Below, one piece after another: positions 880-62,321 of a stretch of 64,000 nucleotides of DNA (position 1 is the first letter of the stretch; each line of letters begins with the position of its first letter). A program made the translations under genes and the position numbers. The stretch is from Okamejei kenojei (Eukaryota): the NCBI GenBank assembly GCA_035221665.1, contig CM069138.1, positions 69,750,001-69,814,000 of the forward strand. Reading direction: 5' to 3'. The notes under the pieces are model-generated. The model was not told the origin of the DNA, did not search any database, and saw only the letters and a list, made by a program, of their open reading frames with translations.

Positions 880-1475
880 AATGCCTGCACTTTGGGGTTT
901 TAGCTACAGGGAGGGATTGGACAGACTTGTTGTTTTCTTTTGATTAAACCTGATTTAATCTATTTAATAGATTACCTGATACTTCTATTTAAAATTATAA
1001 GAGGCATTGTCAGGGTGGACAGCAGAGCCTTTTTCCAAGGTTGGAAATATCAAATACTAGAGGGCATAGCTTTAAGAGGAGAGGGGCAATGCTAAAAGGA
1101 CATGTGCAGGGCTTGTTATTTACACAGAGGGTGGTGAGTGGCTGGAACAGGCTGCCACTATGCCAAGGATGGTGGTGGAGGCAGATGCGATAGTGACCTT
1201 TAAGAGACTTTTGGACAGACGGACACAAAATGCCGGAGTAACTCAGCGGGACAGGCAGCATGTCTGGAGAGAAGGAATGGGTGATGTTTTGGGTCGAGAA
1301 CTTTCTTCAGACTTAATGGGTGACGTTTTGGGTCGAGACCCTTCTTCAGCGTAGACATGTGGATATGCAGGGAATGGAGGGATATGCATTATCTGCAAGT
1401 AGATAAGAGTTGGCATTATGTTCAGCACAGACATTGTGGACCAAGAGACCTGTTCTGTACTGTTCCATGTTCTAC
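880..1475 (+). mobile_element. CR1/HER1-type LINE 3' fragment, interrupted by a Penelope-derived repeat
   Basis: Typical CR1 C-terminal DNA (actagagggcatagctttaag; tttacacagagggtggtgagtggctggaac) and 3' UTR ending ctgttccatgttcta. Confidence 0.8.
1219..1351 (-). mobile_element. Penelope-derived short repeat with two tandem degenerate hammerhead-like cores
   Basis: Reverse strand reads ctgaagaagggtctcgacccaaaacgtcacccatt-aagt-ctgaagaaagttctcgacccaaaacatcacccattccttctctccaga...gagttactcc; same family as 48234-48332. Confidence 0.8.
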
Positions 1476-3949: not shown

Positions 3950-4760
3950 TTGGAAGTATGTCCGTGGAACATACTGGAATACATGTGTGAGGGTCAAGAA
4001 TTGTCTGTTATGGCATCAAGGTTTGCAATACCCTCGCAAACAAAGGAGCTGCTGCAAGCAGAGTTGGCTACCAGCATCAGCTACGTTACAGCACTACAGG
4101 AACAGGTGATGGCTGCAAAATACCATACACCTGTAAATTGTGCATTCCTGAAAGTGCCGGCAGCGAACAGCGCTATCTGGGGAGACATTGGAGGGGGTGC
4201 AAAAACTCAGGAAGTGAAACTGCAACAAATTTGAAAAATTACTGGCCTCGGGCATCTAGGCATTTGCCAGATCTGTGGATGGCGGGCCCTTTTCGGACGT
4301 CCAACAGGATGCCCTGGCGTTGATGTGCAATGCACACTTCGAAATGAACTGCTTTCAGCAGAATGCCATCAGAACTGCCTTAAATACCCAATTTGCAGGC
4401 TTATGCAAGGCCAGCAATGTCCAGCCGCCGAATCTACTCTTCGGGAAAGACCTACCCAAACAGGTAAAAGACCTGGATGAGGAAGCAAAAGCTGTCGGAT
4501 TAATCAAGGTACCAACGACGAGCAAAGCTTCACCGTTTCGGCGACAACACCCCAACGCCTCCATTGGCAGTAAGCGGTTCACTGAAGCTGGTGGCAGCTC
4601 GAAAGCTGATTCTCTGGGCAGAGGTCTTTTAGGCCAAGGCCCAAGCCAGCCCTCAGGGAAAATGCGCAATCCACGCACCCCAGCAGTCCTACCCTCCAAA
4701 ATTTGTGAGGACGGAAATAGAACCCACATCAGGGGCCTTTGGGCTTACCATAAGACCACC
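3950..4760 (+). pseudogene. DIRS gag-like ORF1 remnant
   Basis: ORFs 3950-4234 and 4275-4835 (TPVNCAFLKVPAANSAIW; DALALMCNAHFEMN; LLFGKDLPKQVKDL) lie immediately upstream of RT. Confidence 0.65.
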
Positions 4761-5084
4761 GGTAACCATGGAGGTAGGTGGGTCTGGTTCTTTCCGAAAC
4801 ATGGGGTGTGTGGACTAGTTACAAGTTGGTGGTAGATTACACTTGGTTTTTGCATGAATGGCAATGGATAACATCAGATCCGTTCATAAAATAAAAGGAT
4901 AACATCAGATCAGTTTATACTGCACAATATGCAACAGTTCCAAGTTGAATTTTCCAAACAGAAAGGTCTATATATACAAGCAGATATCCAAACACGTAAA
5001 AGATCTGGATGAGGAAGCAAAAGCTGCTGGGTTAATTAAAGCACCCACGACGAGCAAAGCTTCACCGTTCCAGCGACGACACCC

Positions 5085-6600
5085 TGCGCCTCCAAAAAAG
5101 AAAGATGGAGGACGTCGGATCATCCTTGATTTAACGCAACTAACTCTTATGTGCAGTATAGACATTTCAAAATGGAAAACCTCGTTACTGCCAAACAACT
5201 GATTTCCAAAAGATGCTTTATGGCATGCATCGATCTCAACGATGCATACTATTCGGTGCCCATTCACAGGGATCACCAGAGATATTTGAAATTCAGCTGG
5301 ATGGGGCAACTGTGGCAGTTTAAAGCATTGCCTAATGGGTCAACCTCAGCCCAGGTTATTTACCAAATTATTAAAGCCGGTGCTTGGGCGACTTAGAGCT
5401 CAAAAACACATTGTTATGACATATGTGGATGATTTTCTCATCATAGGAAAATGCTGAAACTGGCTAAATTGGCCACAAAACTCATATTTGACAAGTTGGG
5501 GTTTCTCATCCATTCAGTTAAATCCAAGTTGATACCAACTAGAGTTATTAATTATTTGGGGTTTACCATTAACTCTATTAATATGTCTGTGCCTCTGCCC
5601 TGGGGCAAGAGATTAGAATCAATAGAAGCCTGTAACAACCTTGTTGTTATTAAACAGCTAACTATTCGACAGGTGACTAATGTAATTGGCAAATTAGTGG
5701 CTGTTTTTCCAGCTGCACAATTTGGTCCTTTGCATTATCAGAATTTACAACGTGCAAAGGAGCAAGCACTCAAATACCATTTAGGTCATTTTAACAGACC
5801 TATGCTATTACCAGCTGAAGCTGTATCAGAATTACAATGGTGGACGACCAATATTCGGCATTTCTCCAGTAATATTTGGTCAGTTACTCCAGTTATATTA
5901 CAAACTGATGCTAGTGCTCAAGGATGAGAGCTACTTATACCATCCCTAGTGGCGGTGGCAGATGGTTTGTGCATAAGTTATCAAATTCTTCAGTGACATG
6001 GCATCAACTACCTGGAGATGCTGGGGGCATTTTTATGGGATACAATCTTATTGTGGGAATATGCATACTTTGCATGATTTAACTACAGATTGACAACACT
6101 ACAGCGATGGCATATATTAATCACATGGGTGGAATCAAGTCAGTATCCTGAGATAATTTAGCTAGCCTTATTTGGCACTGGTGTATGGTGAAAAGCATTT
6201 GGATTTCAGCTACCTACTTGCCGGGTAGGTTTAACATGGTGGCGGACACCAGGCCACGCAAACCCAATGACGACACAGAATTGATGTTGGATCATAAAGT
6301 ATTTACCGACATTGTTGCTCGGTATGGAACACCGGAGGGGCAGTGATGATGGATGCATTCTCGCTACACTGGGGAGGAATGTGCTTTTTATGCCACCAAT
6401 TTGCCTCATCAGTCGGGTCTTGCAAAAAATTCCGCTTCAGACATTTTGATAGTGCCTGACTGGCCTACGTAGCCATGGTTCCTGCTGATGTTGTGAATGA
6501 TAATAGAACCTTATATGGTTATTTCTAAAACACAGAAATTTGCTGGTTCATCCCGTGACTCGGGAAGCCCACCCTATGCATATAGAATCAATTTATTGAT
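5085..6600 (+). pseudogene. DIRS reverse transcriptase / RNase H / Dam-like methyltransferase remnant (frameshifted)
   Basis: RT: KKDGGRRIILDL, IDLNDAYYSVPI, QFKALPNG, YVDD at ~5422. RNase H: LQTDAS, INYLEM, IDNTTAMAYINHMGG. MT-like: DAFSLHW and IVPDWPT*PWF. Confidence 0.9.
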
Positions 6601-7560
6601 TTGCAGACTCTAAAAACACCTGTCCTGAGGCTCGGATTGTCAGACCAAACCATGGACGTGATAACTTCAGCTTGCAGAGATAGCACCAAGAAGCAGTACA
6701 TTTCCTATATCATGAGATGGGAAGTGTTTTGTTTAAATTCTAATATGTATAATACGGTACAGATAACTGACGTTTTGGAGTTTCTTTCAAAATTATTCTT
6801 TGACAAAGATTAAGTTATAGTGCCATTGACTGTGCCAAAAATGCCTTGTCAGCATATTTGCTGCTGGGATTAGGACACCACTCTGTCCTCCCTCTGTTAT
6901 CCAGATTCATGGAGGGTATCTTTAATACAAACCCTCCCAGGCCCAGGTACACAGAAGTATGGGATGTTAACATTGTGTTAACACTACTTTGCCGGTGGGC
7001 TCCAGCTACATTCTTATCATTGGCCTGGCTCACATATAAGGTAGTTATGCTCATGGCGCTTGTTTCAGCGCAACGCATCCAGTCGTTGCATAAGCTACGG
7101 TTGGACAGAATGGTTATATCTAACTACAAAATAACGTTCTATGCAATGAGCTAATTAAACATAGCAGACCGGGGTTGTTAGGTCTAAAGCTGGAATTCTG
7201 GCATATCCTACGGACCATAGATTGTGTGTTGTCACACATATTCATCAATATTTTAAGGCTACAAGAACCTTAGAGGCACTGAGCTGGCAATGTTCATTAT
7301 CCACACAAAACCACACAAGAGTGTTTCAGTGCAGACCATGTCTAGATGGTTAAGACATGTATTAGCTTGTGTAGGAGTGAACTTTGATATTTAAATCTCA
7401 CTCCATCACGGCTGCAACAACATCAGCAGTGACGTTCATGGGGTTTCCGCTGGACCGCATCCTAGCGACAGCAGGATGGTCGAATGAGCAGGCTTTCCAA
7501 ACCTTTTATAATAAACCGATTGCCAGGCCGGGTTCGTTAGCCAACTCAATTTTAAATTGA
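6600..7560 (+). pseudogene. DIRS tyrosine recombinase remnant
   Basis: RFMEGIFNTNPPRPRYTEVWDV; LMALVSAQR; HSITAATTSA...LATAGWSNEQAFQTFYNKPI, containing the catalytic Tyr region. Confidence 0.9.
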
Positions 7561-8324
7561 ACTCTGATCGCTATTATTATTATCATTTGCATCAGCATTT
7601 TAAAATCTATGTCATGTCTGAATGCATTATCTTTTCAATCATTTCTGGTCAACTAATGCAGTGTGTGGCATGGACTCGTGTTCACGGCATGAAATCACAG
7701 AGCTTTGAAATCTTCACGTTGTCACTCACGTGACTCCGAAGTAAAATAGGAAGATTAAACGAGAACGTACCAGTTTGAAGTTTGATCTTTATTTTATGAG
7801 GTGTTACGATCAGGGATTACGTGCCCTCCGCTCCCAACCCTTCTCATAAAGTCAACTGGTAGTTCTAGTTTTCTCGAATCTTCCTATAATCAGTTCAACA
7901 ACTGTGTTTCTGTGATTTCACACCGCTGTTTTGAAGGTTGACGCGCATGTGGGCTGGTGGGCTTCTTTACGTAATCCCTCATCGTAACTTCTCGTAAAAT
8001 AAAGATCAAACTTCAAACTGGTAAGTTCTCATTTAATCTTCCTATTTTGTAGTACAAGGGTGTACATATGATGGAAATTTTACAAATAAGATTAAACAGG
8101 CTGATTGAGATCACAAATCATGTATATACAGGAAGCCTGTCCATATGTTTGCATATTTTGCATAGGAATGCTGCACTAAATCAGGGAGTCTCAGTCAAAA
8201 TGGGTGTTATAGCTCTGGCATCAATTAAGGTGAGGCAGTAATGATTCTCAAGGAAACAGACCTAACGGAGAGGGAAAGTGTTGTGCAAAGGGAAGTAGGA
8301 TCTCATAATGGCCCATTGTTTTGT

Positions 8325-8928
8325 TTAGGTTTGTTTAGAGATACAGCACGGAGACAATAGACAATAGGTGCAGGAGTAGGCCCTTCGGCCCTTCGAGCCA
8401 GCACCGCCATTCAATGTGATCTTGGCTGATCATCCCCAATCAGTACCCTGTTCCTGCCTTCTCCCCATATCCCCTGACTCCGCTATTTTTAAGAGCCCTA
8501 TCTAGCTCTCTCTTGAAAGCATCCAGAGAACCTGCCTCCACCGCCCTCTGAGGCAGAGAATTCCACAGACTCGCCACTCTCTGTGAGAAAAAGTGTTTCT
8601 TTCGTCTCTGTTCTAAATGGCGTACTCCTTATTCTTAAACTGTGGCCCCTGGTTCTGGACTCCCCCAACATCGGGAACCCTTCATGAAGGGAGGCCCTTC
8701 AATCCACTGAGTCCGAGTCGACCAGTGATGACCCTGTACACTGGCACTATCCTACACACTAGGGACTATTTTCCATTATTACAAAACCCAATTAACACCC
8801 AGAGAAAACCCACGTGGTCACGGGGAGGACATGCAATCTCCGTACAGACAGCACCCATAGTCAGGATCGAACCTGGGTATCTGGCGCTATAAGGCAGCAG
8901 ATCTATCACTGTGCTACCGTGCCACCCC
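8325..8928 (-). mobile_element. HE1/V-SINE split by a CR1 3' fragment (8353-8680, minus strand)
   Basis: SINE tail tttagagatacagcacgg at 8335 resumes as aggcccttc at ~8692; tRNA-like head (caggatcgaacctggg; gtgccacccc) ends at 8928. The insert carries a CR1 3' end (aataggtgcaggagtagg). Confidence 0.85.
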
Positions 8929-9781
8929 AGATTGCTTGAATATATTTGTTGACCGTCATATTCACAATTTCTCAATTTGGTCAAACTTGGTAAGAGCTGT
9001 CACTGGCATTAGAACAAAACATAATGCCGAGGGGTTCAGCCCTCTCAAATGCTGAAACTATTCATCCAGTTCAATGGACTCCTAAGAATGTAATCCAGTA
9101 ATAACCAAGATTGGGACCTCCTTAATGCATTGGAAATAATACAACATTCAAATTATGGCACTCACTTACCCTGTGACCATGACATTGATCACATTTTGAG
9201 AAACAATGTAGATTTGATTTCTTTACCAGGGTCCCTGACATTTTAACATTAAACACTCCATTTGTTATGCGTCAAACATTCCTATAACCAATGCCAAACA
9301 AACTTGGCATATGCCACACACTTAATACCCGGCCCAGGACTTTGCACTTTTTGAAACCAGACTGTTAATCCCTTAGAGTTTTTGCAAGGTTTGCAGAGGC
9401 AGATAAACAAGTCTTTGACCACAAAACCTTCAATTTATTGCAGTACATCTCAGTTCGATGATTTTAGTTGCCGTTTGATAGTTCTGTCAAAAGAGCTTTG
9501 TCACTGTAATGATTACAGGGAGGGAAGGCTGTAGCCAGCTGAATCCCTGAAAGTAAACAAGCACAAAAGTCACTCTACGAACTGAGGTGAAGTCCTGGCT
9601 ACAAAGAGGCTTCTGAGTTGATAGGGGGCATAACAGGCACAAAATTGTGCTGAGCAACATTAAGGCAAGAAAAGCTTCACATAATTAAATGCAAATGCCA
9701 TGTCTTTATTTCAAAGCATTTGAAAGAAAATTGTAATGGCCTTGTGAAATCATAAGTATTTCATACAAATACACAGAGGAT

Positions 9782-10854: not shown

Positions 10855-10932
10855 GAAGACCCGAAATGTCACCTATCCATGTTCTCCAGAGATGCTGCCT
10901 GACGGGTTGAGTTACTCCCGGATATTGTGTCC
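10855..10932 (+). mobile_element. Penelope-derived short repeat, partial hammerhead core
   Basis: gacccgaaatgtcacctatccatgttctccagagatgctgcctgacgggttgagttactcc. Confidence 0.75.
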
Positions 10933-13192: not shown

Positions 13193-13561
13193 AATAAAGT
13201 CCAAAGTACCACATGCCTTCTAAATTGTTCTCTGCAGCTCCTGGTGATTGTGTGCTTGGACACCCACCACCTTTGAAGATAAACGTTGTTCATTCGATTA
13301 CGAGTCAACAAATACTTTATTTGCTAGCTTGACCCAGCTACACCCTTGCACAACTGACACTGCCTTTTGCCAGGAAAGGGGGATGAAACAACAAAAGCAG
13401 CCAGGCTGTGAGACTTACAGCAAAACAAAGTATTTTGCAGAATACCTGCCACACTCTGAAAAAATTCTCTCACCTTTGCAGCCTCCGTTACAACTTATCA
13501 TTGGGGCTACTATGTGGATTTTTGGAGTTGTAGATTTCACAGCTGAGCTATCAAGACTGGA

Positions 13562-13655
13562 AGGTAGACAAAAATACTGGAGAAACTCAGCGAGTGAGGT
13601 AACATCTATGGAGCGAAGGAAATGGGCAACGTTTCGCGTCGTAACACTTCTTCAA
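13562..13655 (-). mobile_element. Penelope-derived short repeat
   Basis: Reverse strand ttgaagaagtgttacgacgcgaaacgttgcccatttccttcgctccatagatg...gagtttctccag; close to 48234-48332. Confidence 0.8.
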
Positions 13656-14059: not shown

Positions 14060-14600
14060 TGACAGTGCTCGTAGAACCTCAATGGGTCAGGAAGCATCTC
14101 TGGTGGACATGGAATTATGAGGGACATAGATAGGATTGACAGTCAAAACCATTTTCTCAGGGTGGGAATATTAAATCCTTCTTCAGACCAATTGTAGTAG
14201 GAGGGAGAATGCTGGAAGGGAGGTGGGGGCAGGACAAAGTCTGGCAATTTAAAGGTGGATACAGGTGAGGAAGGGTTTTGATTAGCAGATGATTAGACAA
14301 CGACCGTTCGACATAAGCAACAAATAGGCAAGCATAACCGGGGCCCTTGCGAGTGCCATTGGCTACCTTTAACTTGAAGAAAATGGGAGGAGTCAAAAGA
14401 GAAGTTCATAATGGTGAGGAATAGTTCTGCCAGGCGGAGAAAAATGCTAGTACAGGGAAGCTGACTGGGGCAAGGAAAATTCAGAGGGCCTTGAGACTTT
14501 CTTCATGGTGAATGGAGTTGCAAAAGGAGTGGATATCTATGGTAAAGATAAGGCAATGGGGCCCTAGAAATTTAAAGTTATTAGAGAATTTAAGAATTTT
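14060..14600 (-). mobile_element. Penelope-like element remnant (RT motifs plus pLTR), internally deleted
   Basis: Reverse strand LIFTIDIHSFCNSIHHEESLKAL and NFSFDSSHFLQVKG..GTRKGPGYACLFVAYVE resemble PLE RT motifs (DVxSLYTxIP; GxAMG..P.YA.L). Followed by tctgaagaagg and the family tail. Confidence 0.75.
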
Positions 14601-16629
14601 ATAATTGAATGTGTCAGATTTAGGTAGGAAGGAACTGAACATGGGGGGGGGGGGGGGGGGGGGGGGGTTAAGATGGAATCAAAGTATTTGGAGATCATTT
14701 CTTTGCGGCAGTAGCAGGCTAAAACAACCTGCAACTCTTTGGTTCATTCATCCATTGCCACCTAAATCACTGCCTTTCCTCCAACAGCATGAGATGTAAC
14801 ACCTCTCCCTGAGGCTGTCTGGTCATCTGTCTCCATCTGGCTTTCTCTAGTTCCTAGTTGACTACTCTACCTTCCTTTGTCCACTGGTGCAACAAGACCA
14901 GAATCCAGTCCCAGATCCATTCTTGTATGTTTACCTGTTTCTCTCCTACCCTTCCACCTGCAACTCTCAGTATTCACTTTGTTTGTTATACCCACATATC
15001 CTCCCCATACTGATGACCACTCAACCTCCCTTCCTGGACTTCATGCTGTCTGATGCAATTAACAAAGTTTTCTCATTTCATCCACTGCCTCCCTCCCCTT
15101 TATATCAATCTTCATGGTCCCTTTCCCCCAAAACTAAACTCTAGCATTTCATAAATTATTCTTGCATCTGCATTTTCTCTCCTCTTCCCAAAGTAAATGA
15201 GTAACCTTTTCTCAAAGTCATGCTGTCTTATCCTGACCTCATTATCTGAATTCCTGCAACAAGAAATAAACATTCTGGCCCTGCCACTATTATGAAAGAG
15301 TTATGAAATCTTGTATGATTGTGGGGAGGAACCTATCTTTTTTCAAAACACCAATTGCTGGAGTAATTCTACGCGTTGCCTGACCCACTGAGATCATCCC
15401 GCACTTAGTGTTCTGCCCAAGATTCCAAAATCTGCAGTTCCTGGAGGCTCTATCTCTCTCCAACCTGTTCAAAGTCTTTACGATCACATCATTTGCTTCA
15501 ACAACTCTCCCTCACTTCCGGGTTGGTTAGAATGTATTTGCCTGTTACAATTTTGCCTATCAAATTACAGTGAGATAGGAACCAGCAATGGCTTCTCTCT
15601 CCATGCTCACACCTTGCTCTTATTTCCACCCTTGCTCTCTTCCTATTTCTCAACACCAAGCAGCAGCATCCAAGATCATGGTGCCAGCTTCCACAGGAAG
15701 TCTCCAGTTCTACCTCATCACCACCTCTCTTGGCACCTCTGCTGTCTCAGGAGTGTTAGATTTATTGTCAAATATTTTGTGCAGTATAAGCAAAGTTCCA
15801 ATCAAACTATAGTTTAGAATGTCCAAAACTATTGCCATCAGTTCCAGGGACAAACCCGGATCGCTGTCCATTGACTCCATCCACTGATAACAGTGAAACT
15901 GACCAAAATGTTTTCAAGACTTGATATCATACTTGACCCTGAGGTGATATTAACTCCAGAAAACAGCACAACTTCTCACTTGACCTTTCCCCACATCTCA
16001 TGGCTCTGTGCACATAATGCTCTAGAACAGCCAGTACACATTGTATTGCAGAAGCTTTGAATCTGTTGACCCATGATTTAGCAGGAAAGTGAAACTTGTC
16101 AAAGTAAATGCAACTTCCTCGTATGCTCCTGCCCCAACTGGCCCGGGTGATCAAAGCACAGCCTCAACACCAGCTGGATCCTGAGCCAAATTCTGCTCAT
16201 AGATACCAAGAACATCTCTCAACAGTAATGTGCAACTTTAGTACTAAACCTTAAATTTATCTGATCAAATCTCTGGGTGTTTTTTTTTTAATGAAATAAG
16301 ACATTGTTGTTTTCGAACAAATTTCTGACGCTTTGATCACTCCAGTACATTTAACTGTGAATGTACTTTTAAGATCGATGTGGTATGACTTGTGAAACAT
16401 TATTGTACTAGTTACTGTGGTTAGCTGAGTGTGGATTATCTTTAATAAAGGATTTGTTGTTGGCAATTCCAACACTTGTACTTGCCTTCGTACAACATAG
16501 ACGATATACATTAATGTTACTAATGTTACAGAGTGAAATTATAGTTCATACATATGTTCCCATCAAGCACTAGAGACACTTCACATTTTGATTGGTTTAG
16601 TCCGTTAAAAGTCTGTCTTGGCGGGAAAC

Positions 16630-17784: not shown

Positions 17785-17990
17785 GCCTGCAGGTGCTGGA
17801 ATCTTGCGAAAAAAAACCACAAAGTGTTGTCGTTACTCAGTGGATCCGGCAGCATCTGTGGAAATGGTTGGACATTGTTTTGGGTCGGGATGCTTCCTCA
17901 GACGGAATAAGAGCCCCAGCCCAAAACGTTGCATGCCCATTTCCACCAGAGATGCTGCCTGAACCGTTGAGTTACTCCAGCACTTTGTGT
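17785..17990. mobile_element. Head-to-head inverted pair of Penelope-derived repeats
   Basis: cacaaagtg...gcagcatctgtggaaatgg versus ccatttccaccagagatgctgcc...cactttgtg. Confidence 0.75.
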
Positions 17991-19444
17991 GATTGTTATC
18001 ATTCGGCGAGTCTCTGCTCAAGGAGGGCCCCAAGGAAGCAGCTTCACAGACATACTGAACCTCTCCGTCTATGGGAGTAAGTCACCCCATTGTAAATGAA
18101 AATCCACAAAGAAATCCAAACAAGTGTAGCAGCACATCAAAAGCCAACTTGCATTTTCAGTTTCCTTACCTGATACTTATCCAAAGCATGGGGAACTCAG
18201 AACAAAATTGCAGATTTTGCAATCCTTGTGGCAATTGCTCATGTTGTAGTTTCATAGAAATTGTGTTGTGTAGCATGTAACAATGTGATGCCACACAATA
18301 TAATTCATAAACATTTCTCTTTATCTGTATCAGTTTCCTCTCAAACTTTGGAAAACAAGGTCAGATCGGATCACTCCACAGCTTTTGAAACTGAAGGAAA
18401 TACAATCCTCATTTTGGTGATGTCTCCTTGTCAACAAACCCTTGGGGTACGGATCTGGCAAATCTGCGCCGCTCTCCCTCCAGAGCCCAAACATCCTTCT
18501 AGGTGGCTGTAGAATCATTATGAAAGCCCTGACTTTATGTTTGCTACTATTATTCAAACAAATGTGCAAAATGAGAAGGAAATTCGTAACATATACAAAG
18601 AATTAAACCGTTGTCATTACTCACAGGGCCAAGGGGTAGCAGAGATAAACTATTCAATATTCCACAGTGTTAGGAATGGATTGATGAGTGTTGCTTGGAT
18701 ATCAGTTCAAACTAAATACAGAAATATAGAAGTCTGAAAATATCATGATATTAAAGGATTTATTTGGCTTCATGATCCAATATGGATCCACCTTCAAACA
18801 AATGTTAGTATATGTGGTAGATTGACAGCAGATTGCTTCTTTTGTAAGACTCATGATTGTCCTGTTGCTAAACTGACCAGTTAATTAGGTAGAATGTAAT
18901 CAGGCATACAGTCAATGCCAAGTGTTCACTCCAAGCTTCTGTTAAATGAAACTCTCCATTAAATGCGAGGTTAACAAGGTTAATGTTTCTTTGAATTCAA
19001 ATCTAATTAAAATAATTTATGTTAAATGAATTATTACCTTATAAAGCAGTCTAAATAACAATGATATTGAGACATGAGAAACTGCAGATGTGAGAATCTG
19101 GAGCAAAAAAACAAACTGCTGGAGGAACCCAGTGGGTAGTAGTTCAATGGTGCATTAGTGCCACATAGGCAAACATACAGTGAAATTCTGCATTTTGCCC
19201 ATAAATCACTAAAATCATATTATACATAAGCACAATTATGAATAAATACAAATAAATACAAAAGTGCAATGATTGTCATGTAAGAATAGCAGATTTCACT
19301 AAGGCAGTATACAGAGAGTCGCTGGGTTTCCAGCACCATCTCCTGCCCTTCAAATTTCAACTTCTTTAAACAAAGTCTTATCTTGGCCTTGAGAGCCTGT
19401 TTTAAACGGTGGCGGCACTGGGTCAGTGTGGCAGGGGGTTAAAT

Positions 19445-19930: not shown

Positions 19931-20779
19931 TGGCGATGCTGTTGGTGTCCTCCCCTGCCCTCCACCACTCCATACTGCTTCAGGTAAATTTGCCTGTAAA
20001 GACAGAGGAATCATCTACATTTCAGGTTGAGACCCTGCATTAGGACATTGAAGTTGGAATAGCGTGCACCTGGAAACGATTTAACTGCCATATAAAGGTT
20101 GTTAGGTCTGAAGCCCACCCCTTGATGAAGTTGCTGCTTTGTAATGCACAGCCATGTGTTACTCTCTCTGTAGTCAGCAAGCACATAGGAGAAATTATAT
20201 TTACAGCACAATACCTCAGTGGTTTTGGTATCAACGTCAACCCCTTTATTCAAGTTTTTTCAAGAAATCTTTAACGCTGTCAAAACAGATCTTGCTATTT
20301 TAAGTAGATTGCTCCATTTTCAAAATCCAAATCTGTATAACATCACCTTCTGAATTCTTGCCAATGTTCTTTAAATTGTGCACAGCTCCTTTTGAACATT
20401 TTAGCTGAATAATATGCTTTAACTTTTATGGACCAATAAAATATGACTGGAGCATTTATCCAGGTCTGCCATCAGCTTCTTTGAGTTAATTTATTTCAGA
20501 CACTATGAGTTTTCCAAGAAGCCTATAATTGTGAAGCTGTGCAGTCCCACTTGAAAAACTGAGCTACCTTTGCAGAATTTGGTGTCTATAAATTGCTCAG
20601 TGGTGTTTACTTGCCACTTATCCGGTGCATTAATTTGCTGATTTACCTCTGCTCCTGAATGCCAAGATGTGTTGTGATGCATTGATATATTGCCCTTTTT
20701 TGATTGCCACACTTGACAGACAATAAACAGTCACCATTGACATCTGTCACTCCATTCACAGTTCAAAAACAGCAAATCT

Positions 20780-22365: not shown

Positions 22366-23310
22366 ATGAAGGCCAGGGCAGCTTACTGTTGTGGATGTCA
22401 GATGTGGGAGGTCAAGGAATCTGATAGCCCTCCAAACATCCACATCTGCGCCAGGTGTGTTGAGATGGGGCTCCTAAAGGACTGTGTTAGGAAGCTGGAG
22501 CAGCAGCTCAATGACCTCCGTCTGGTCAGGGAGAGTGAGGAGGTCACTGAGAGGTGCTACAGGGAGGTACTCACTCCAAAACCACAGGAGGCAGACAAAT
22601 GGGTCACAGTTAGGAATGGCAAAGGGCAGAGGCAGGGGCTAGAGAGTACCCCTGTGATTGTACACTGATAGGTACTCCAGTTTGAGTGCTGTTGGGGTGG
22701 ACAGCCTACCTGGGGGTAGCAACAGCGACCGGGCCTCCGGTACAGAGACCAGCCCTGATGCTCAGAAGCATAAGGAAAAGAAGAGGAGGGCATTAGTAAT
22801 AGGGGACTCCATAGTTAGGTGGTCAGATTGGCGATTCTGTGGACGCAGTCCGGAGACCCAGATGGTAGTTTGCCTCCCTGGTGCCAGGGTCCGGGATGTG
22901 TCTGAACGTGTCCAAGATATCCTGAAAAGGGAGGGAGAGGAGCCTGAGGTCGTGGTACATATTGGTACCAATGACATAGGTAAAAAAGAGAAGAGGTCCT
23001 AAAAGGAGAATTTAGGGAGTTAGGAAGAGAGCTATGGAAAAGGACCACAAAGATAACAATCTCAGGACTACTTTCTGTGCCACGCAACATTGAGAGTAGG
23101 AATGGAGCAAGGTGGAGGATAAACGCGTGGCTGAAGGACTGGTGTGGAGGGCAGGGATTCAAGTTTCTGGATCATTGGAACCTCTTTCGGGGAAGGAGTG
23201 ACCTGTATAAAAAGGACGGGTTGCACTTGAACCCAAGGGGGACCAGTATCTTGGTGGGGAAATTTGCAAAGGCTACTGGGCGGGACTTTAAACTAGATAG
23301 GTTGGGGGGA
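22366..23310 (+). pseudogene. CR1 ORF1: Cys-rich zinc finger, coiled coil, SGNH/GDSL esterase (frameshifted)
   Basis: CCGC...CARC; VRKLEQQLNDL; VIGDSIVR (block I), LPGA (II), HIGTND (III), DGLHLN (V), spread over ORFs 22366-22668, 22658-23002 and 23077-23496. Confidence 0.88.
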
Positions 23311-23602
23311 GGGACTCAAATAGAGATAGCTAGGAGACGGTGTCTGAGGCAGGAGGCAGAGAAGGGAAGCACTCAGACCCAACATGTACGGGGGGAAGAA
23401 GAAAAAAATAATAAACAGAGAATAAGATGTGGTGGGTGTCCTAAAGGTGTGAGCAGAGAGAAAGAGGGGTATAAAATGACAATAGAAGCAAGGTGAACAT
23501 TAATAGTGGCTGACAGACAAATCCAGGAAAAAAATCAAAAGGGGCCACTTTCAACATAATTGTATAAAGGGTAAAAGTGTTGTAAAAACAAGCCTGAAGG
23601 CT

Positions 23603-26383
23603 TTGTGTCTCAATGCGAGGAGCATTCGTAATAAGGTGGACGAGTTGAATGTGCAGATAGCTATTAATGACTATGCTATAGTTGGGATCACGGAGACATG
23701 GCTCCAGGGTGACCAAGGCTGGGATCTGAACATCCAGGGATATATAATATTCAGGAGGGATAGACGGAAATTAAAAGGAGGTGGGGTAGCGTTGCTGGTG
23801 AGAGAGGAGAATAATGCAATAGAAAGAAGGGACATTAGCATGGAGGACGTAGAATCGATATGGGTAGAGCTGCGAAACTCTAAGTGGCAGAAAACGCTAG
23901 TGGGAGTTGTGTACAGGCCACCTAACAGTAGTATTGGAGTTGGGGATGGCATCAAACAGGAAATTAGAAGTGCGTGCAACAAGGGTAACACAGTTATAAT
24001 GGGTGACTTCAATCTGCACATAGATTGGGTGAATCAAATTGGCAGGGGTGCTGAGGAAGAGGATTTCTTGGAATGTATGCGGGATAGTTTTCTAAACCAA
24101 CATGTGGAGGAACCAACGAGAGAGCAGGCTATTCTAGACTGGGTATTGAGTAATGAGGAAGGGTTAGTTAGCAGTCTTGTTATGCGTGGCCCCTTGGGCA
24201 AGAGTGACCATAATATGATTGAGTTCTTCATTAGGATGGAGAGTGACATAATTAAGTCAGAAACAAGGGTTCTGAACTTAAACAAAGGTAACTTGTTTGG
24301 CCAAGATAGACTGGCAGGTGAGTCTTAAAGGGTTGACAGTGGATGTGCAATGGAAGGTATTTAAAGACTGCATGGATGAAGTACAAAAATTGTTCATACC
24401 AGTTTGGCAAAAGAATAAATCAGGGAAGGTAGTGCATCCGTGGATAACGAGGGAAATCAGGGATAGTATAAAAACTAAAGATGAGGCATACAAATTGGCC
24501 AAAAAAAGCAGCCTACCAGAGGACTGGGAGAAATTCAGAATCCAGCAGAGGAGGACAAAGGGCTTAATTAGGAAAGGGAAAATAGATTACAAAAGGAAAC
24601 TGGCAGGGAACATAAAAACTGACCGCAAAAGTTTTTATAGATATGTGAAGAGAAAGAGACTAGTTAGAACAAATGTTGGTCCCTTGCAGTCAGAAGCAGG
24701 TGAATTGATCATGGGGAACATGGACATGGCAGACCAATTGAATAACTACTTTGGTTCTGTCTTCACTAAGGAAGACATAAATAATCTGCCGGAAATAGCA
24801 GTGGGCCGGAGGTCAAATAAGATGGCGGAACTGAGTGAAATCCAGGTTAGCCAGGAAGTGGTGTTGGGTAAATTGAACGCATTAAAGGCCGATAAATCCC
24901 CAGGGCCAGATGGTCTGCATCCCAGAGTGCCCAAGGAGGTAGCCACGGAAATAGTGGATGCATTAGTGATAATTTTTCAAAACTCCTTAGATTCTGGAGT
25001 AGTTCCTGAGGATTGGAGGATAGCTAATGTAACCCCACTTTTTAAGAAAGGAGGGAGAGGGAAAGCGGGGAATTACAGACCAGTTAGTCTAACATCGGTA
25101 GTGGGGAAACTGCTAAAATCAGTTATTAAAGATGGGATAGCAGCGCATTTGGAAAGTGGTGAAATCATTGGACAAAGTCAGCATAGATTTACGAAAGGTA
25201 AATCATGTCTGACGAATCTTATAGAATTTTTCGAGGATGTAACTAGTAGAGTGGATAAGGGAGAACCAGTGGATGTGTTATATCTGGACTTTCAGAAGGC
25301 TTTCGACAAGGTCCCACATAAGAGATTAGTATATAAACTTAAAGCACATGGTATTGGTGGTTCAATATTGATGTGGATAGAGAACTGGCTGGCAGACAGG
25401 AAGCAAAGGGTAGGAGTAAACGGGTCCTTTTCAGAATGGCAGGCAGTGAGTAGTGGGGTACCGCAAGGCTCAGTGCTGGGACCCCAGCTATTTACAATAT
25501 ACATTAATGATTTGGATGAGGGAATTGAATGCAATATCTCCAAATTTGCAGATGACACCAAGCTGGGGGGTATAGTTAGGTGTGAGGAGGATGCTAGGAG
25601 GCTGCAGGGTGATTTGGATAGGCTGAGTGAATGGTCTGATGCATGGCAGATGCAGTATAATGTGGATAAATGTGAGGTTATCCACTTTGGTGGCAAAAAC
25701 ATGAGGGTGGACTATTATCTGAATGGTGGCAGAATAGGAAAAGGGGAGATGCAACGAGACCTGGGTGTCATGGTACACCAGTCATTGAAAGTAGGCATGC
25801 AGGTGCAGCAGGCAGTGAAGAAAGCAAATGGTATGTTAGCATTCATAGCAAAAGGATTTGAGTATAGGAGCAGGGAGGTTTTATTACAGTTGTACAGGGT
25901 TTTGGTGAGACCACACCTGGAGTATTGCGTACAGTTTTGTATCCAAATCTGAGGAAAGACATTCTTGCCATAGAGGGGGTTCAGAGAAGGTTCACCAGAC
26001 TGATTCCTGGGATGTCGGGACTTTCATATGAAGAAAAACTGGATAGACTCGGCTTGTACTCACTGGAATTTAGAAGATTGAGGGGGGTTCTTATAGAAAC
26101 TTACAAAATTCTTAAGGGGTTGGACAAGCTAGATGCAGGAAGATTGTTCCCAATGTTGGGGGAGTCCAGAACAAGGGGTCACAGTCTAAGGATAAGAGGG
26201 AATTCCTTTTGGACCGAGGTGAGGAAAACATTCTTTACGCAGAGAGTGGTGAGTCTCTGGAATTCTCTGCCACAGAAGATCGTTGAGGCCAGTTCATTGG
26301 CTATATTCAAGAGGGAGTTGGATGTGGCTCTTGTGGCTAAAGGGATCAGGGGGTATGGAGAGAAGGCAGGTACGGGATACTGA
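23603..26383 (+). pseudogene. CR1 ORF2: APE endonuclease plus reverse transcriptase (frameshifts near 24295 and 25940)
   Basis: APE: NARSI, GITETWL, YRPP, GDFN, SDH. RT: NYRPVSLTS, LDFQKAFDKVPH, GVPQGSVLGP, FADD. Confidence 0.95.
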
Positions 26384-27844
26384 GTTGGATGATCAGCCAT
26401 GATCATATTGAATGGCGGTGCAGGCTCGAAGGGCCGAATGGCCTACTCCTGCACCTATTTTTCTATGTTTCTATGTTTCTATCCCTTTAGCCACAAGGGC
26501 CACATCTAACTCCGTCTTAAATATAGCCAATGAATTGGCTTCAAGTACCTTCTGTGGCAGAGAATTCCACAGATTCACCACTCTCTGTGTGAAAAATGTT
26601 TTTCTCATCTCGGTCCTAAAAGACTTCCCCCTTATCCTTAAACTGTGACCCCTTGTTCTGGACTTCCCCAACATCGGGAACAATCTTCCTGCACCTAGCC
26701 TAACCCCTTAAGAATTTTGTAAGTTTTTATAAGAACCCCCCTCAATCTTCTAAATTCTAGCGAGTACAAGCTGAGTCTATCCAGTCTTTCTTCATATGAA
26801 AGTCCTGCCATCCCAGGAATCAGTCTGGTGAACCTTCTCTGTATTCCCTCTGTGGCAAGAATGTATTTCCTCAGATTAAGAGACCAAAACTGTACACAAT
26901 ACTCCAGGTGTGGTCTCACCAAGGCCCTGTACAACTACAGTAGAACCTCCCTGCTCCTATACTCAAATCCTTTTGCTATGAATGCTAACATATCATTCGC
27001 TTTCTTCACTGCCTGCTGCACCTGCATGCCTACTTTCAATGACTGGTGTACCATGACACCCAGGTCTCGATGCATCTCCCCTTTTCCTAATCGGCCACCA
27101 TTCAGATAATAGTCTACTTTCCTGTTCATGCCACCAAAGTGCATAACCTCACATTTATCCACATTATACTGCATCTGCCATGCATTTGCCCACTCACCCA
27201 ACCTATCCAAGTCACCTTGCAGCCTCCTAGCATCCTCCTCACAGCTAACGCTGTCCCCCAGCTTCGCTTCATCCGCAAACTTGGAGATGTTGCATTCAAT
27301 TCCCTCGTCCAAATCATTAATATATATTGTAAATATCTGGGGTCCCAGCACTGAGCCTTGCGGTTCCCCACTGCCTGCCATTCTGAAAATGACCCGTTTA
27401 CTCCTACTCTTTGCTTCCTGTCTGCCAGCCAGTTCTCTATCCATATCAATACTGAACCCCCAATACTGAACCCCCAATACCCTCAAACGTTTGTACCTGC
27501 GCTTTTAGATCCCTCTGATTTACAACACTCTCTAGGACAGTAGATAGAATGGTAAAGATGGTACACAGTATAAAATGGGCTGTTTCTGTGCTATATGTCG
27601 TATTCCACGAATGAAGACAGACTAGGAGCGATTGCAGAGCAAATGGATTTGATCCAAGTACATCGTTAAAAAACTCATTGGTAAGTAAGAAGAGATCAGC
27701 AAAATTTATGTCCTGTGAGACTTTTATTTGAAAGGAGTGGAAGCTTGGAATATAAACAAGAGGCAGTAAGGATTTAATTGTAAAGAGACTTGGTCAGACA
27801 ATATCTCAAACACAACATTCGTTTTGGGTATTGAACTATAGCTT

Positions 27845-40377: not shown

Positions 40378-40472
40378 GTAGAACACAATGTGCTGGAGTC
40401 TCTCAAAGGGTCAGGCAGCATCCCTGAAGGACATAGACAGACAATGTTTTGGATTGGGACCCTTCTTCAGGC
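40378..40472 (-). mobile_element. Penelope-derived short repeat
   Basis: Reverse strand gcctgaagaagggtcccaatccaaaacattg...atgctgcctgaccc...ctccagcac. Confidence 0.75.
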
Positions 40473-48030: not shown

Positions 48031-48233
48031 AATGTCTCACAGCACCTCTACATTAGTTCACTGTCGCACTTAAAGAGAGTTAGGTGACATTTCTATGGTC
48101 TTCTTTCACAAATGCATGTAAAAATATGATCAGGAATCTTTACTTAATGGGGTTTCCTGAATGTTGAGATGATCAAAAACTAAGGGGTGATGCCAGGGGA
48201 TTGGTTCACACTTAAGAAGGTGACGTGGAACAT

Positions 48234-48332
48234 AAGTCTGAAGAAGGGTCTCGACCCGAAACGTCGCCTATCTCCTTCGCTCCTTAGATGCTGCTGCACC
48301 CGCTGAGTTTCTCCAGCTTTTTGTGTAACCCC
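48234..48332 (+). mobile_element. 99-bp Penelope-derived insertion with intact minimal hammerhead core and 12-bp TSD
   Basis: TSD gacgtggaacat at 48222-48233 and 48333-48344; core ctgaaga-a-gggt(ctcg)accc-gaaac-gtc. Confidence 0.85.
48238..48268 (+). ncRNA. Putative minimal type-I hammerhead ribozyme motif
   Basis: CUGANGA, stem II, GAAA and GUC triplet are present. Stem III is reduced to palindromic ACGU; stem I is only about 2 bp. Activity untested. Confidence 0.55.
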
Positions 48333-48829
48333 GACGTGGAACATTCATTTGAACTGCTGACCTCCATGTGGTGAGAATACCTCTGTAGCACGGATCAATA
48401 TTGAGTGTTGACATTGTGACGTTTGGAAATTGTCAAGCACACCAGCTGTACATTCAGCATAAGAAATCTTCTGCGCACCTCATGATTTTGGGATTAACCA
48501 AGGCAACGTGGGTACAGTGGTTGGTTTACTGTGCCATGTAGAAGCCTAAACCCACACGGGGATTCTCCCTTGCTCACTGGCTGTTCACTCCGTCTCGCCA
48601 ACAGTCGTGAATCTTCACCTTCTTATATTTCCTGAATTTTCTTTATTTTCTTTGTTTCCCTAATAAAGTAATGAGCTGAAAAATTAAGAAATGCTACTGA
48701 TGTCCACAGCGGCAGCATCAGCAGTGACCGCTCCTACACAGCAGTTCTCTGTGGCTACCAGTGCATCCTAATGAACACTACTTTGCACATTGCTCCTTTG
48801 GCCAGGTTGATTCATTGCACCCTGTAAGT

Positions 48830-49408: not shown

Positions 49409-52400
49409 ATTTTACTTCGGAGTCACGTGAGTGACTACGTGAAGAAGCCCCGCCAGTGTGCATGCTCGTCATTACGTCAGATGCATCGGGCTGGCAGGGC
49501 AATGCTCCTGCCGGTGGTAAGTTTCAACCTAGAAGGTAAGTGTTTTTTATTTACCAGCATTGTTTGTTCAAGCAGGAGCCTCTCTTCACAGAGGTTTTCT
49601 GCCGGATTTATCCGAAGTCCGATGCGTAAGCCGGCTATGGGCTGTGGGGGAACCCCGGACCGACCACTGAAGCGGACAGCCGGCAAAGATCGGGTTTCGA
49701 GATAACAGCCGCTCACAAAGCAGTCAGTGGCTTCCAGCCTGCTGGGATGCCGTTTAAAGAATGCCAGAGTCGCTGACAGTGCGGTCAGCGACTCACAGGC
49801 ACGTTGGTCCCCAGGCATGGAGTAAAATTGGAGTGAGAGAGAACTCGTGCAGCCCTATTGGGACTCGGGTGAGTCGGGCTGCAAGGGTTCCTCTCCGATA
49901 ATAAGGGTATTTTTCACCCTTTAGAAGTCCACACTGCCAAATTAGTGAGACTACACTATAAGAGCGCGGGCCTATGGGACAGGCCGCGCCAGCAGCACTT
50001 GGAACAGGGCTGTTTCATGTGAAAAAGCGCCGGCCTCTACGAGAGGTGGCGCCAGCAATGCCTGGGACAGGGTTGCTCAAGGTCTCCCTGCTGGAGTGGG
50101 AGACCAGGACGGGTCAGTGTACTACTGACGCCAAATCTGTCACAGCGCTGGACTACGGGAGAGCCGTGCCAGCAGTGCCTGGGATAAGGCTGCTTCATGT
50201 GTGAAAGCGCCGGCCTACGGGAGAGCTGCGCCAGCAGCGCCTAGTACAGGGCTGCTCAAGGTCTCCCTGTTGCAAAGGGCAGACCAGTTTGGGTCAATGG
50301 GTTGCTGACACCAAACTTTTCACAGAGCAGGCCTACGGGAGAGCCGCGCCAGCAGCACCCGTTGACAGGGCTGTGTGTATGACCTCCCATAAGCAGGAAC
50401 CGGGAGAGCCAGGGCAGTATAAATCTGACCCTGAAGTGGTGAGCTCCCGTGAGCATCAGCCGGGAGAACCAGGACATGGGGACCCAGCACAGCAGCATCT
50501 CGTTTGGGCTGCGTGTGTGATCTCCCGTGAGAATGACTTGGAAGAGCCAGGGAAGTAGGAATCTGACCCTGAAGTTTGGGCCACAGCACACCAGCACCTC
50601 GTTTAGGGCTGTGTGCGACCTCCCGTGAGCATCAGCCGGGAGAGCCAGGGCAGGGTGAAGCTGACCCTGAAGTTTGGTGTCATTGCTTATGTGCATACAC
50701 CAGAGCACATGAGCCATGCTCTAGGTATGCCGGATGGGGTCAGAAATTTACAATACCGGCGGGAACTGATGCAGCCAGGGATAACAATCTGACCAGCAAA
50801 TTAATGGCCTCTCACCAGTTCCAGGACTTCATAATGGAAGAAACTTCACATATCAAACACGTAACTGTGCATCGCTCTAAAGGAGCGCTTCATGAGGGCG
50901 CATGAATTAAGGCTGCAGAAGTCTTAAAAAACTGGTTGGAGCAGGAACTATGGCGTTTGGGCAAATGGCAAGGCCACTATCTAAACACAGCAGGATATGG
51001 ACCCTGCTGTGTAATGCCCATTTGTTAGTTTATTATTTACGAATAACTATACAGCCTACACTCAACCCACAGTTCACAGCCTTGCGCAGATCCTCTAGTA
51101 CTCAGGGGAAGACCTGGACGATGAGACAAAAACTGAGACCAGGATGCCACCTCAAAAACCGTACCCTTTAGGAAGAGGTAAGTGAATATTGGACTGTATC
51201 CGGGGATCTTGAATAGGTATCTCGGAAGTACATCCTCCCGTACAAAATACACGTAGTTGGGTATTGGGGTTCAATACCACTAACTCTACAGATGAATGAT
51301 GCATATCAGCCTTAACAATTGTGTCCAATCCCCCAGCCAAAAGAACGATGGTGGGTGTCGAGTCATTCTGGGCCGAAACATACTTAACCCTTAAGGTCCA
51401 GTATAAAAGGTTTTAAATAAATATTTCAGTATAGTAACTGGGATAAAAAGGGTGTTATATGGCAGCCATAGATCTGAAAGATAATATTCAGCTACCACAC
51501 ACCTGTTGAGAGGTTAGGTCCTCACCCATCTAATTAAACTCAGATTAGTACCATTTAGAATGATTGGCTATTTGAGGTCATCATTGGTTAATTAACATGG
51601 CAGTACTTTGCCTACGGCCAAAAGTGTAACTAATGTCTCACGATGTACTAGCGACATTCTGACTCAATAACCTTTAGTTTACAAACTGATGTGAGCTTCA
51701 GGATGAGGAGCCACTGATATCAAGTCTGGCTGTGGCGGAGATAGAATGTGAAAGAACATTCTATCTCCGCATGAGGCATGAAGTAAACTGCATAGAATTG
51801 CTGAGTGCATTCTATGGCCTAAAGAATTCTGCTCAACAATGCATAATTTGCATGTGCAGCTTCAGATTGATAATACCACAGCTGTTGCATATCAATCACA
51901 TGGGTGGAATGAGGTCATTATTCTGTGGCAATCTGCCTAGCCTCATCTGGCACTGGTGCATTACAAGGAACATCTGGGTCTCAGATATCTACCTATCAGG
52001 TAGAGATAATGCAAAAGTTGCAGACACCAGGTCATGTAAATTCCATGACAAACAAAAAATGGATGATGAATCCAAAAGTTTCAAAATGATTGTTATGGAT
52101 TGCCAGACATAGATCTGTTGCATCTGGGTTAAATTACCAGTACCTATATTTGGCATGGGAACCAAATCTAGGGGCAGTAGCGGAGGATACATTCTCGCTA
52201 CATTGGGGATGTACATTCTTACGCTTTCCCCATTTCTGCCTCATTTAATCAATGTCTCACCAAAATAGAGTACAACTACACTTAGGCGTTTGGTAGTTCC
52301 TAAACTGGTCCACACAGCATGGTCCCATTGGTTCTGAGAGGGATGACACAGCATTCATGATTATCCCAATTACAGCAACTTGTTGGTTCACACTGGGACA

Positions 52401-57994: not shown

Positions 57995-58122
57995 GAACAC
58001 AAAGAACTGCAGATGCTGGTTTACAAACAAAAAAGGAAAACACAATGCTGAAGTAATTCACCAGGTCAGGCAGCATCTCTGGAGGACATGAATATGTAAT
58101 GTTTTAGGACATGACCCTTCTA
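57995..58122 (-). mobile_element. Penelope-derived short repeat
   Basis: gaactgcagatgctgg...ggtcaggcagcatctctggaggacatg...atgttttaggacatgacccttct. Confidence 0.7.
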
Positions 58123-59532: not shown

Positions 59533-60280
59533 GAAACACAAAGTGCCAGAGTAACTCAGCAGGTCAGGCACCATCTCTGGAGAACATGGATAGTTTACTT
59601 TGGTTTAGTTTAACAATACAGCGCAATAATATGTCCTTCGGCACCGACCAGCAATCCCCACACACCATCCTACGCACACACTGGTGACTGACATTTAAAC
59701 ACCAAGCCAATTAACCTACAAACCTGTGCATTTTTAGAGTGTAGGAGGAAGCCAAAGATCTCGGAGAAAGCCCACGTGGTCATGGGGAGAACATACAAAC
59801 TCCATACAGACAGCAAGACAGCACCCATAGTCAGGATTGAACCTGTGTCTCCGGAGCTGCAAGCACTGTAAGGCAGCAACTCTACCACTGCGCCAACGTG
59901 CAGCCCAATGTTTTGGGTCGGGAGCCTTTTTCAGTCTCATTGTAGTGGGGATGTGGGGGGTAGGAGAAATAGGGGGTGGGCAGTCAGAGCAGAGCAAAGT
60001 CAGGAAAGTGATAGATACAGCAGATGGGTGTTAATTGGCAGATGGGCACACAAAGACCAGTGAAATAAGGCGAGAAGAGGTATAAATTGTGAGTCCAGAG
60101 GAAAGATTGTAGGTGGAAGGAAATATGGGAAAGGGGAAAGGGGTGGGATAGTGGGAGAATGGGCGCACACTTTGAAAAGAGTGGAGGGGGAGTGGAGATG
60201 GATTGTTGGTCAGTAACATAAAATTGGAGAATTCAAAGTTCATACCATTGGATTGTAAGCTACCCAAGCAGAATACCCTA
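59533..60280 (-). mobile_element. Penelope 3' end (GIY-YIG C-terminus plus pLTR), split by an HE1 SINE (59594-59906, minus)
   Basis: Reverse strand FCLGSLQSNGMNFEFSNF resembles the PLE terminal motif IFxLxTLxPxGLN. Then pyrimidine tract, ctgaaaaaggctcccgacccaaaacatt, and the family tail beyond the SINE. Confidence 0.8.
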
Positions 60281-61100: not shown

Positions 61101-62321
61101 ACTTATTTCACAGCCAAAAGCTTGCCAAATGTCTGGTGGCATTTGACAGTGGCTCCGTGAGCAGACTCCATCTGTTGGATATATGTGCAATGACATTTCA
61201 CTTTCAAAATGCACCCCATTACAGTTCAAACAGGTTGTTTTTGGCGTAAAACAAATCAGAAATAGAACTTATGGAGGATTCGTGTCCATGATATTCATGT
61301 TTGCATAGAATTTGGCACAAGAAATTACAACAGATATTCCCTTCCTGAAGTAATTATATCTTATGCATTGGTGCACTCTACATATTATTCAGATAGGACT
61401 AAAGCCTTTGTTTTTTCTTTCTCTAAAGAGAATCACAAATCATCAATAATCTTGACAGCTTCCTGTAATGTTTTAGCAATGGCCAATTCTAGATGAAATA
61501 TATATTCAATGTCAAGAAAATATTATTCAGTGAATTCAACCTCAGAACTTTGCTCAGAGTTCACGAGATTCTTCATTTCCGGTCTAGTTAACAACATTGT
61601 AACTACCATCCCCATTTCAACTCCAGCCATAACAAATAAAATTAAGGTTATTTTAATGAAGAATAGATGTGACTCATGTGTAATACAATACAGCAGAATA
61701 CAGTTAAGAGCAGCTAATTGCAGTTTACTTTATTGTCAACATTAACGTTTGCATTCAATTGAACTTATAAATCATTACATCACTTGCATCTGATAGGGGT
61801 TATAAACTTTGTGGCATGACATACACTTTGTTTTTGCAAACTAGTTGATTTTTCCAAACCACTCCCAAAGGAATTATGAAGTCGGCCAAAGGGTATTATT
61901 GTGTATGTTTGGGATTTGTTAAATACTGTTCAAAATTTGTAAACGTATGGTGAACCCAGTTTACACCAATGTAATAGGGCAGAAGTTGTTTCAAATCCAG
62001 GGTGCAGTGTGACCAAGATACAAAGTGATCATAAACAATTTTAATATCATTCATTAATGTACTTTGTCTGGCTTGGCATTGCAGTTGAATCTTGTTCAAT
62101 GAAACTCCCAGTAGAAATGAATCAGTTCCTCCAGTATTTTGTGTCTCTCCACAGCGTAAACCAGCATCTGCAGTTCCTTCCTACACAATGCCATGTATCA
62201 CTTTGTTCCATTAATATGAATTCTAATCCTATTGCTTTAACATGCAGTAGTGCTCATTAATGTGCTTCTGGTAGGAAATAAAAGATCCATAGTGAAAACT
62301 ATCATAAAGGTCTGAGCCTAT

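Follow-up and report, generated by a model that had tools for sequence, protein, structure and literature searches.

A hammerhead-bearing 99-bp insert in the skate Okamejei kenojei is probably a reverse transcript of the mRNA leader of a Penelope-like element

Introduction

Penelope-like elements (PLEs) of the Neptune clade, of the EN+ type, are described in PMC4209133 and PMC8557442 as partial tandems with the arrangement pLTR-ORF-pLTR, encoding a reverse transcriptase (RT) followed by a CX2-5CxxC linker and a GIY-YIG domain, with inverted 5' copies, an optional 30-40-nt tail, and a minimal hammerhead ribozyme (min-HHR) that has an extra base before helix II and a palindromic helix III stub. 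The family analysed here, from the skate Okamejei kenojei, resembles them in all of these traits. It differs from what those sources report in its numbers (about 48,000 exact cores, against 4,000-9,000 min-HHRs in coelacanth and Xenopus), in that about half of its young copies begin at one sharp edge, and in the unusually long low-complexity N-terminal region of its protein.

Three other systems are close enough to be compared. PAc, a Poseidon element of Anolis carolinensis (PMC11167929), belongs to a different clade; its two 3' ends lie shortly downstream of the hammerhead and are separated by the length of one tail, a pattern tied to two internal RT start sites, its template is uncut RNA and either strand can prime, in all of which the skate family appears alike, but in the skate element the ORF begins after the tail. 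Run-off at the 5' end, addition of G and jumps from end to end do not appear to be described in the main text of that paper, and its Fig. S2 may show a comparable 5' pile-up. Penelope of D. virilis (PMC2377424; PMC4209133) likewise is reported to have a promoter and start in the pLTR, a hammerhead with just 2 bp in helix I and, at the 5' edge of this helix, an acceptor-like site; its start precedes by 46 nt a 75-nt intron running up to the ribozyme, which places it about 120 nt upstream of the ribozyme, whereas the start that we infer here coincides with the ribozyme. Metazoan non-LTR retrozymes (PMC7229834; bioRxiv 10.64898/2026.07.22.740005) are, as here, pLTR-related, non-coding, dispersed and provided with a type I hammerhead, but they are described as tandemly repeated units, each with its own ribozyme, that are processed to circles, while the present unit is a 99-bp monomer matching a parent element.

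The PLE replication cycle is called undefined in PMC8557442, and for the regeneration of pLTRs PMC2377424 sees "no obvious mechanism" beyond a propensity to form tandems. Solo pLTRs, palindromic inverted junctions and Inr-like pLTR motifs are noted in PMC3846280, where self-priming is favoured.

Results

The insert and its parent element

The window analysed is a stretch of 64,000 nucleotides (contig CM069138.1 of assembly GCA_035221665.1, positions 69,750,001 to 69,814,000, forward strand). A sequence-only reading of it had pointed to a 99-bp mobile unit that begins 4 nt before a CUGAAGA box and lies between perfect 12-bp target-site duplications. Both statements hold (Table 1), and contigs of runs X21 and X24, two related assemblies, join 48224 to 48336; the 111 bases that they skip equal the insert plus one duplicate, so an empty site exists. 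Positions given below with a sign are counted from core base C3 (window 48238 = 0), with the predicted ribozyme cut between +27 and +28. Rfam gave no match over the insert at E<=5, and no hammerhead model matches. A search for host exons in the 64-kb window found none among 87 frames of at least 95 aa, the domains present being of LINE type only.

Table 1. Positions of the insert, its parts and its relatives in the 64,000-nt window
Feature	Position	Strand	Remarks
Left copy of 12-bp target-site duplication	48222..48233	.	Perfect match to right copy; single copy at empty site
Insert	48234-48332		99 bp between two perfect 12-mers
Single base A	48234..48234	+	Differs from both target and parent, which has C; probably added without a template at the template end
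Beginning of parent-derived sequence	48235..48237	+	-3 from C3; Inr-like YYANWYY in parent; putative mRNA start
5' strand of 2-bp helix I	48236-48237	+
Minimal type I hammerhead core	48238..48265	+	CUGAAGA, extra A, 4-bp helix II, GAAA, palindromic ACGU replacing helix III
CUGAAGA box	from 48238
Extra A	48245
Helix II	48246-48249/48254-48257
GAAA	48258-48261
Predicted cut	after 48265
Leader body up to short 3' end (~+93)	48266..48332	+	~35-nt tail missing in this copy
Right copy of target-site duplication	48333..48344	.	Perfect 12-mer
Older-subfamily copy	1214..1349	-	Short head-to-tail repeat of its 5' ~35 nt; probable restart after run-off
Older-subfamily solo	13553..13654	-	Decayed core
Old head-to-head inverted pair	17786..18005	.	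Tail remnant in one arm
Older-subfamily solo	40381..40472	-	Decayed core
Older-subfamily copy with tail	57999..58121	-
Partial copies	1916-2020, 10858-10932, 14071-14105, 15375-15443, 19076-19137, 20006-20042, 59533-59593, 59907-59936, 62124-62185

The unit is almost certainly the pLTR end of an intact Neptune-type PLE. It matches the last ~96 nt of the pseudo-LTR of a parent element at 98.96% (unit positions 2-97), from which the window copy departs in its first base and in a single-base variant near +90, the latter also carried by long copies. In the parent, two unit copies 3955 bp apart (loci L121 and L123, the former inside a 12-bp duplication) flank an open frame of 1197 aa. These loci came from a protein search that yielded 43,897 first-look candidates, of which 150 were scored; many copies extend upstream into the ORF. 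Pfam places RVT_1 at residues 681-851 (E 5e-6) and GIY-YIG at 1101-1134 (E 0.004), both under the curated cut-off, and the frame carries the motifs DKG and YIDD, a CX4CxxC linker (CxxC at 1069, with a cysteine four residues earlier) and a CxxC before YIGET (at 1104, inside GIY-YIG). The partial RT frame of another locus, L050, gave no Pfam match.

A single ORF with RT and C-terminal GIY-YIG, pLTRs arising from partial tandems, inverted 5' copies and the optional 30-40-nt tail identify the parent as an EN+ PLE. The CX2-5CxxC linker before GIY-YIG and the two cysteines inside it are those by which Neptune and Nematis are defined in PMC8557442, and Neptune is favoured over Nematis by the vertebrate distribution given in the cited papers. 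An initial assignment to Poseidon was dropped, as Penelope/Poseidon elements lack the linker zinc finger and the CX4CxxC linker is present. Counted from its first Met the ORF has 1185 aa (L123:3779-7369), longer than the ~840-aa PLE ORFs reported in PMC3846280, owing to a Pro/Ser/Thr/Ala-rich stretch of ~300 aa between the N-terminus and the RT-proximal region. In the parent, -3 is occupied by an Inr-like site and -32 by a TATA-like word, and neither AATAAA nor ATTAAA occurs in the element.

The Penelope origin and mobilisation by Penelope machinery that had been suggested from the sequence, with solo pLTRs as one option, are supported. The other options, a non-autonomous family of retrozyme or SINE type, find no support in the comparison of 122 short with 145 long copies, in which no position differs (lowest p 0.07) and all variants are common to both. 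Tandem units with a complete hammerhead each, as in non-LTR retrozymes, are not the rule, only occasional runs of 2-3 units being found (L215, L309), and the 5' edge does not fall at the cut site. Nor does the unit have the features of a SINE, i.e. a lineage of its own with diagnostic variants and a head unrelated to its partner.

Ends of the copies

Ends were tallied for the first 100 body matches of contig C1 (first 4 Mb, one chromosome), from which three copies with unclear sister-type flanks were dropped, leaving 97; three others were counted as long. Boundaries are far from random, as the sequence-only reading had required of a mobile unit: 50 of the 97 copies start at -7..+7, compared with 26 beyond -100, 2 at -100..-8, 10 at +8..+27, 5 at +28..+32 and 4 at +33..+50. 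The stop rate per base at -7..+7 is 0.056, versus 0.001 upstream (p 7e-49) and 0.005 downstream (p 5e-22). There is no edge at the ribozyme cut site, four of the five copies at +28..+32 lying in rearranged arms. Copies that contain the ORF start show the same edge (6/30 at -7..+7, p 7e-6), and loose contig ends pile up at the same bases in all runs with depth. Genome-wide, starts with non-native flanks number 2,877 at +2 and 15,683 at -3, the latter including other subfamilies. Assembled contigs of 24 runs, of a kind mostly guessed, cover the leader far above the ORF start, which is no measure of expression.

At the other side there are two fixed 3' ends, putative sites of RT initiation, at ~+93 (short, 59 copies) and ~+127 (tailed, 36 copies), with 2 copies ending otherwise; the window copy uses the upstream one. 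Duplications of at least 8 bp enclose 55 of the 97, with a family median of 13 bp. Like the window copy, which is a monomer, 28 of the 57 non-inverted copies are solos, or roughly 20,000 genome-wide if the C1 sample is typical. The 36 inverted arms form 22 insertions, each with exactly one tailed arm and 21 with a duplication, suggesting that the two target strands were primed at these two putative start sites; starts at -2/-4 in these pairs coincide with a CAG-N-CTG palindrome.

Leader-flanked chimeras

Among copies that contain the ORF start (ranks 1-97 of the 150 scored), 20 are chimeras with 21 junctions, a number that may be an undercount because wider flanks were available for only 10 of the first 30. 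Their general structure is [start ... X] + A-run + G + [start ... +92 or +128], in which the break X lies at 568-579 in 11 cases and at 484-3019 in the rest. A G precedes the leader at 19 of the 21 junctions (p 1e-8 against 0.30), compared by eye with 4/20 before the start in long truncated copies; at the L351 junction there are ~28 A plus GG. In 13 of 17 pairs, 0/0 and -2/-2 among them, the two halves begin no more than 1 nt apart, where 7.3 such pairs would be expected (permutation p 0.0008). One duplication of 10-18 bp encloses 9 of 13 chimeras tested, the second stop falls at the start again in 17 of 20, and the two junctions of L299 differ from each other. A full run from the start to the 3' pLTR is seen only in L350 and L367.

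In plain solos the G signal is weak to modest (by eye, 44/100 at +1 among the listed +2 starts and 33/100 at -4 among the listed -3 starts), and the window copy has an A. Short 5' repeats with an inserted G occur in run X19. The ORF break at +568..+580 from the 5' core of L123 is recurrent, being found in 11 of 21 junctions, at the 5' end of L124 and at the start of a deletion in L370; neither a poly(A) signal nor a hammerhead is present there, and it may be an RNA end or a third RT entry site. L307 and L371 are tandem elements that repeat a private duplication or deletion in every unit.

The hammerhead core

The core had been read as a minimal hammerhead with an extra A after the CUGANGA box and with only ~2 bp in helix I, and this description stands. 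By the definition of PMC4209133, it has the CUGANGA box, the extra base, helix II with G10.1-C11.1, GAAA, the palindromic 15.2/16.2 pair and UH of a minimal type I hammerhead, while its native helix I has 2 bp instead of 4-5, as in 102 of 138 descriptor matches. A descriptor scan of the window finds one intact core, against 0.05 per shuffled window (20 shuffles). Great abundance had also been predicted: the exact 28-nt core has 24,302 + 23,913 = 48,215 matches in the 2.76-Gb genome and none in the reversed control, and a 20-nt body motif of the young subfamily has 68,592.

Self-cleavage looks weak given the 2-bp helix I. The predicted pairing probability of helix I is at most 0.002 in four contexts, a forced hammerhead fold is predicted to lie 3.4-7.6 kcal/mol above the minimum, and folding of the unit is no better than that of shuffles (z 0.25); where the tail is present, the 5' strand of the core is predicted to pair with it. 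RNAs starting at +2 would be without C3 and U4. In PAc the hammerhead is reported to cut only with protein and to be dispensable in vitro (PMC11167929), min-HHRs of S. mansoni to cut weakly as dimers (PMC4209133), and 8 of 9 Xenopus dimers to remain uncut (bioRxiv 10.64898/2026.07.22.740005), for which reasons a lone copy is unlikely to cut host pre-mRNA.

In the majority of 63 older copies retrieved by means other than the core, the core shows changes at 0 of its 28 positions and the body at 9 of 60 (Fisher p 0.052). Blocks of the body (stem +48..+56) are about as conserved, so that conservation is not peculiar to the core. Second alleles of the core in older copies fall at CpG sites and in the loop, and a sub-lineage with a UUCG loop, a U-G wobble and GUU (4/138 descriptor matches) carries only tolerated changes.

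Discussion

A model for the origin of the copies

The element itself is of a known kind; it is the mechanistic footprint in its copies that was not found in the literature searched. The insert was likely copied by reverse transcription from the element's own mRNA, of which it would represent the initial ~95 bases, as a leader-first cDNA reaching back to the mRNA start. Transcription would begin at about -5..+2, just ahead of or within the hammerhead, and the 5' edge of the copies would correspond to the capped 5' end of the mRNA. With a nick made by GIY-YIG as primer, RT would start inside the 5' leader, by internal initiation as shown for PAc, and run off the capped end. RTs add C opposite the cap, which would appear as G on the sense strand. 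From here, four outcomes can be envisaged: (a) the leader cDNA is joined to the target, giving a solo like the window copy; (b) it meets a second cDNA that was primed on the opposite strand at the alternative start site, and a head-to-head pair results; (c) it jumps to the A-tailed 3' end of the same RNA, giving a leader-flanked chimera, in which the order of synthesis would be leader, run-off, addition of C, re-priming on the A-tailed end and the same end again; or (d) homology carries it over to the 3' pLTR, which would yield ordinary long copies and, in a second round, a promoter-bearing partial tandem. The A-runs may be RT additions rather than poly(A), given that the element is without AATAAA/ATTAAA. 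The templates would carry the hammerhead uncut, and for cleavage it likely depends on a partner copy or on the protein of the element. Solos, being without the upstream promoter region and the downstream ORF start, are probably dead ends.

For long copies, read-through of tandem masters is as good an account as homologous transfer. The 5' and 3' pLTRs within an element are only modestly closer than those of different elements (2.6% vs 3.3% with the rearranged L359; 37/3578 sites without it).

In the minus-strand strong-stop step of retroviruses and LTR elements, priming near the RNA 5' end gives a short cDNA up to the cap, which is transferred to the 3' end, and this first strand transfer rebuilds the terminal repeat. 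The route proposed here would differ in having no tRNA primer or RNase H and in its RT lineage, and its short product would integrate because it is primed by nicked target DNA. That PLEs replicate by such a target-primed strong-stop route, with pseudo-LTRs and promoter-bearing tandems rebuilt each round, we suggest only tentatively, as it may well not hold; tens of thousands of failed transfers would then have scattered hammerhead cores through the genome.

Other explanations of the same data

The 5' edge could also arise if the mRNA started elsewhere and the short copies of the same parent were 5' truncations, primed in the 3' pLTR, that stall or fold back at the 5' edge of the hammerhead on account of structure, a bound protein, a polypyrimidine-CAG acceptor-like site at -4..-2 or the CAG-N-CTG palindrome. 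PLE copies are mostly 5'-truncated according to PMC8557442, the inverted junctions are centred on the palindrome, and the acceptor-like sequence lies just upstream, as where the D. virilis intron ends at helix I (PMC4209133). Stops after helix II has already been passed are hard to reconcile with stalling, as are the same stop twice within one insertion, the concordant offsets and the A-run + G junctions. Duplications abut the start, with no room for a captured exon (18/49 adjacent), GT..AG ends occur in 0 of the 15 joints listed (44 more lie outside the list), and among 31 solos without an adjacent duplication there are five distant 11-mer matches upstream, at least three of them explained by tandem or chimeric structure. 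We regard this explanation as unlikely.

Copying round the junction of circular or end-ligated RNA templates, either cut by the ribozyme or decapped and oligo-A-tailed, has been proposed for PLEs (PMC4209133). One molecule read repeatedly would fit the concordant chimera starts and the repeated private junctions of L307 and L371, yet the cut site (+28) is not used by any junction, a renewed stop at the start and not at random is seen in 17 of 20 chimeras, and the two junctions of L299 differ; such templates seem highly improbable. We give equally little credence to a retrozyme or SINE that forms an independent non-autonomous family, has masters of its own and is able to cut host pre-mRNA. It would account for short copies that number in the tens of thousands and have fixed ends and duplications, for the unchanged 28/28 core, and for the derivation of animal retrozymes from pLTRs (bioRxiv 10.64898/2026.07.22.740005), but not for the absence of private variants, starts that are ragged over 15 nt, the predominance of monomers, the lack of an edge at the cut site or the prevalent 2-bp helix I.

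Leader-first copying with jumps would help to explain how PLEs rebuild their terminal repeats, and would account for minimal hammerheads occurring mostly as lone motifs; such monomers should not be called new SINE or retrozyme families. In a literature search that left most subscription papers, Repbase and supplements outside its scope, leader run-off, cap-G or end-to-end jumps in PLEs were not found. In this young family the intermediates can be counted in the genome, as solo leaders, one-tail inverted pairs and A-run + G chimeras, and the ORF is intact, so that priming in the leader, run-off at the cap and transfer are open to direct tests in an in vitro system of the PAc type.

Relatives in the window and neighbouring repeats

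All 12 of the relatives listed in the sequence-only reading were recovered by a profile, which gives 17 matches in the window, including the locus at 48234, and 0 in the reversed window. The window also contains a near-complete CR1-like LINE (22984-27504, with esterase-like, endonuclease and RT domains), the 3' part of which is inverted at 26481-27466, and degenerate tandem repeats of ~180 and 99 bp (49963-50677).

In the first 4 Mb of C1 (L034-L080, L213-L236) there are arrays of 3-12 copies of a 54-bp unit corresponding to the leader body (~+33..+88) of an older subfamily, 16 of 38 lying behind a recognisable hammerhead core. There are 35 such arrays in 502 kb there and 0 in 659 kb of protein-anchored loci elsewhere, and they may represent a minisatellite expansion at the chromosome end or iterative telomerase-like copying. 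A separate repeated inverted-repeat element of ~340-380 bp, present several times on C1 (L268, L269, L287, L288), carries outward-facing old pLTR pieces with a shortened core.
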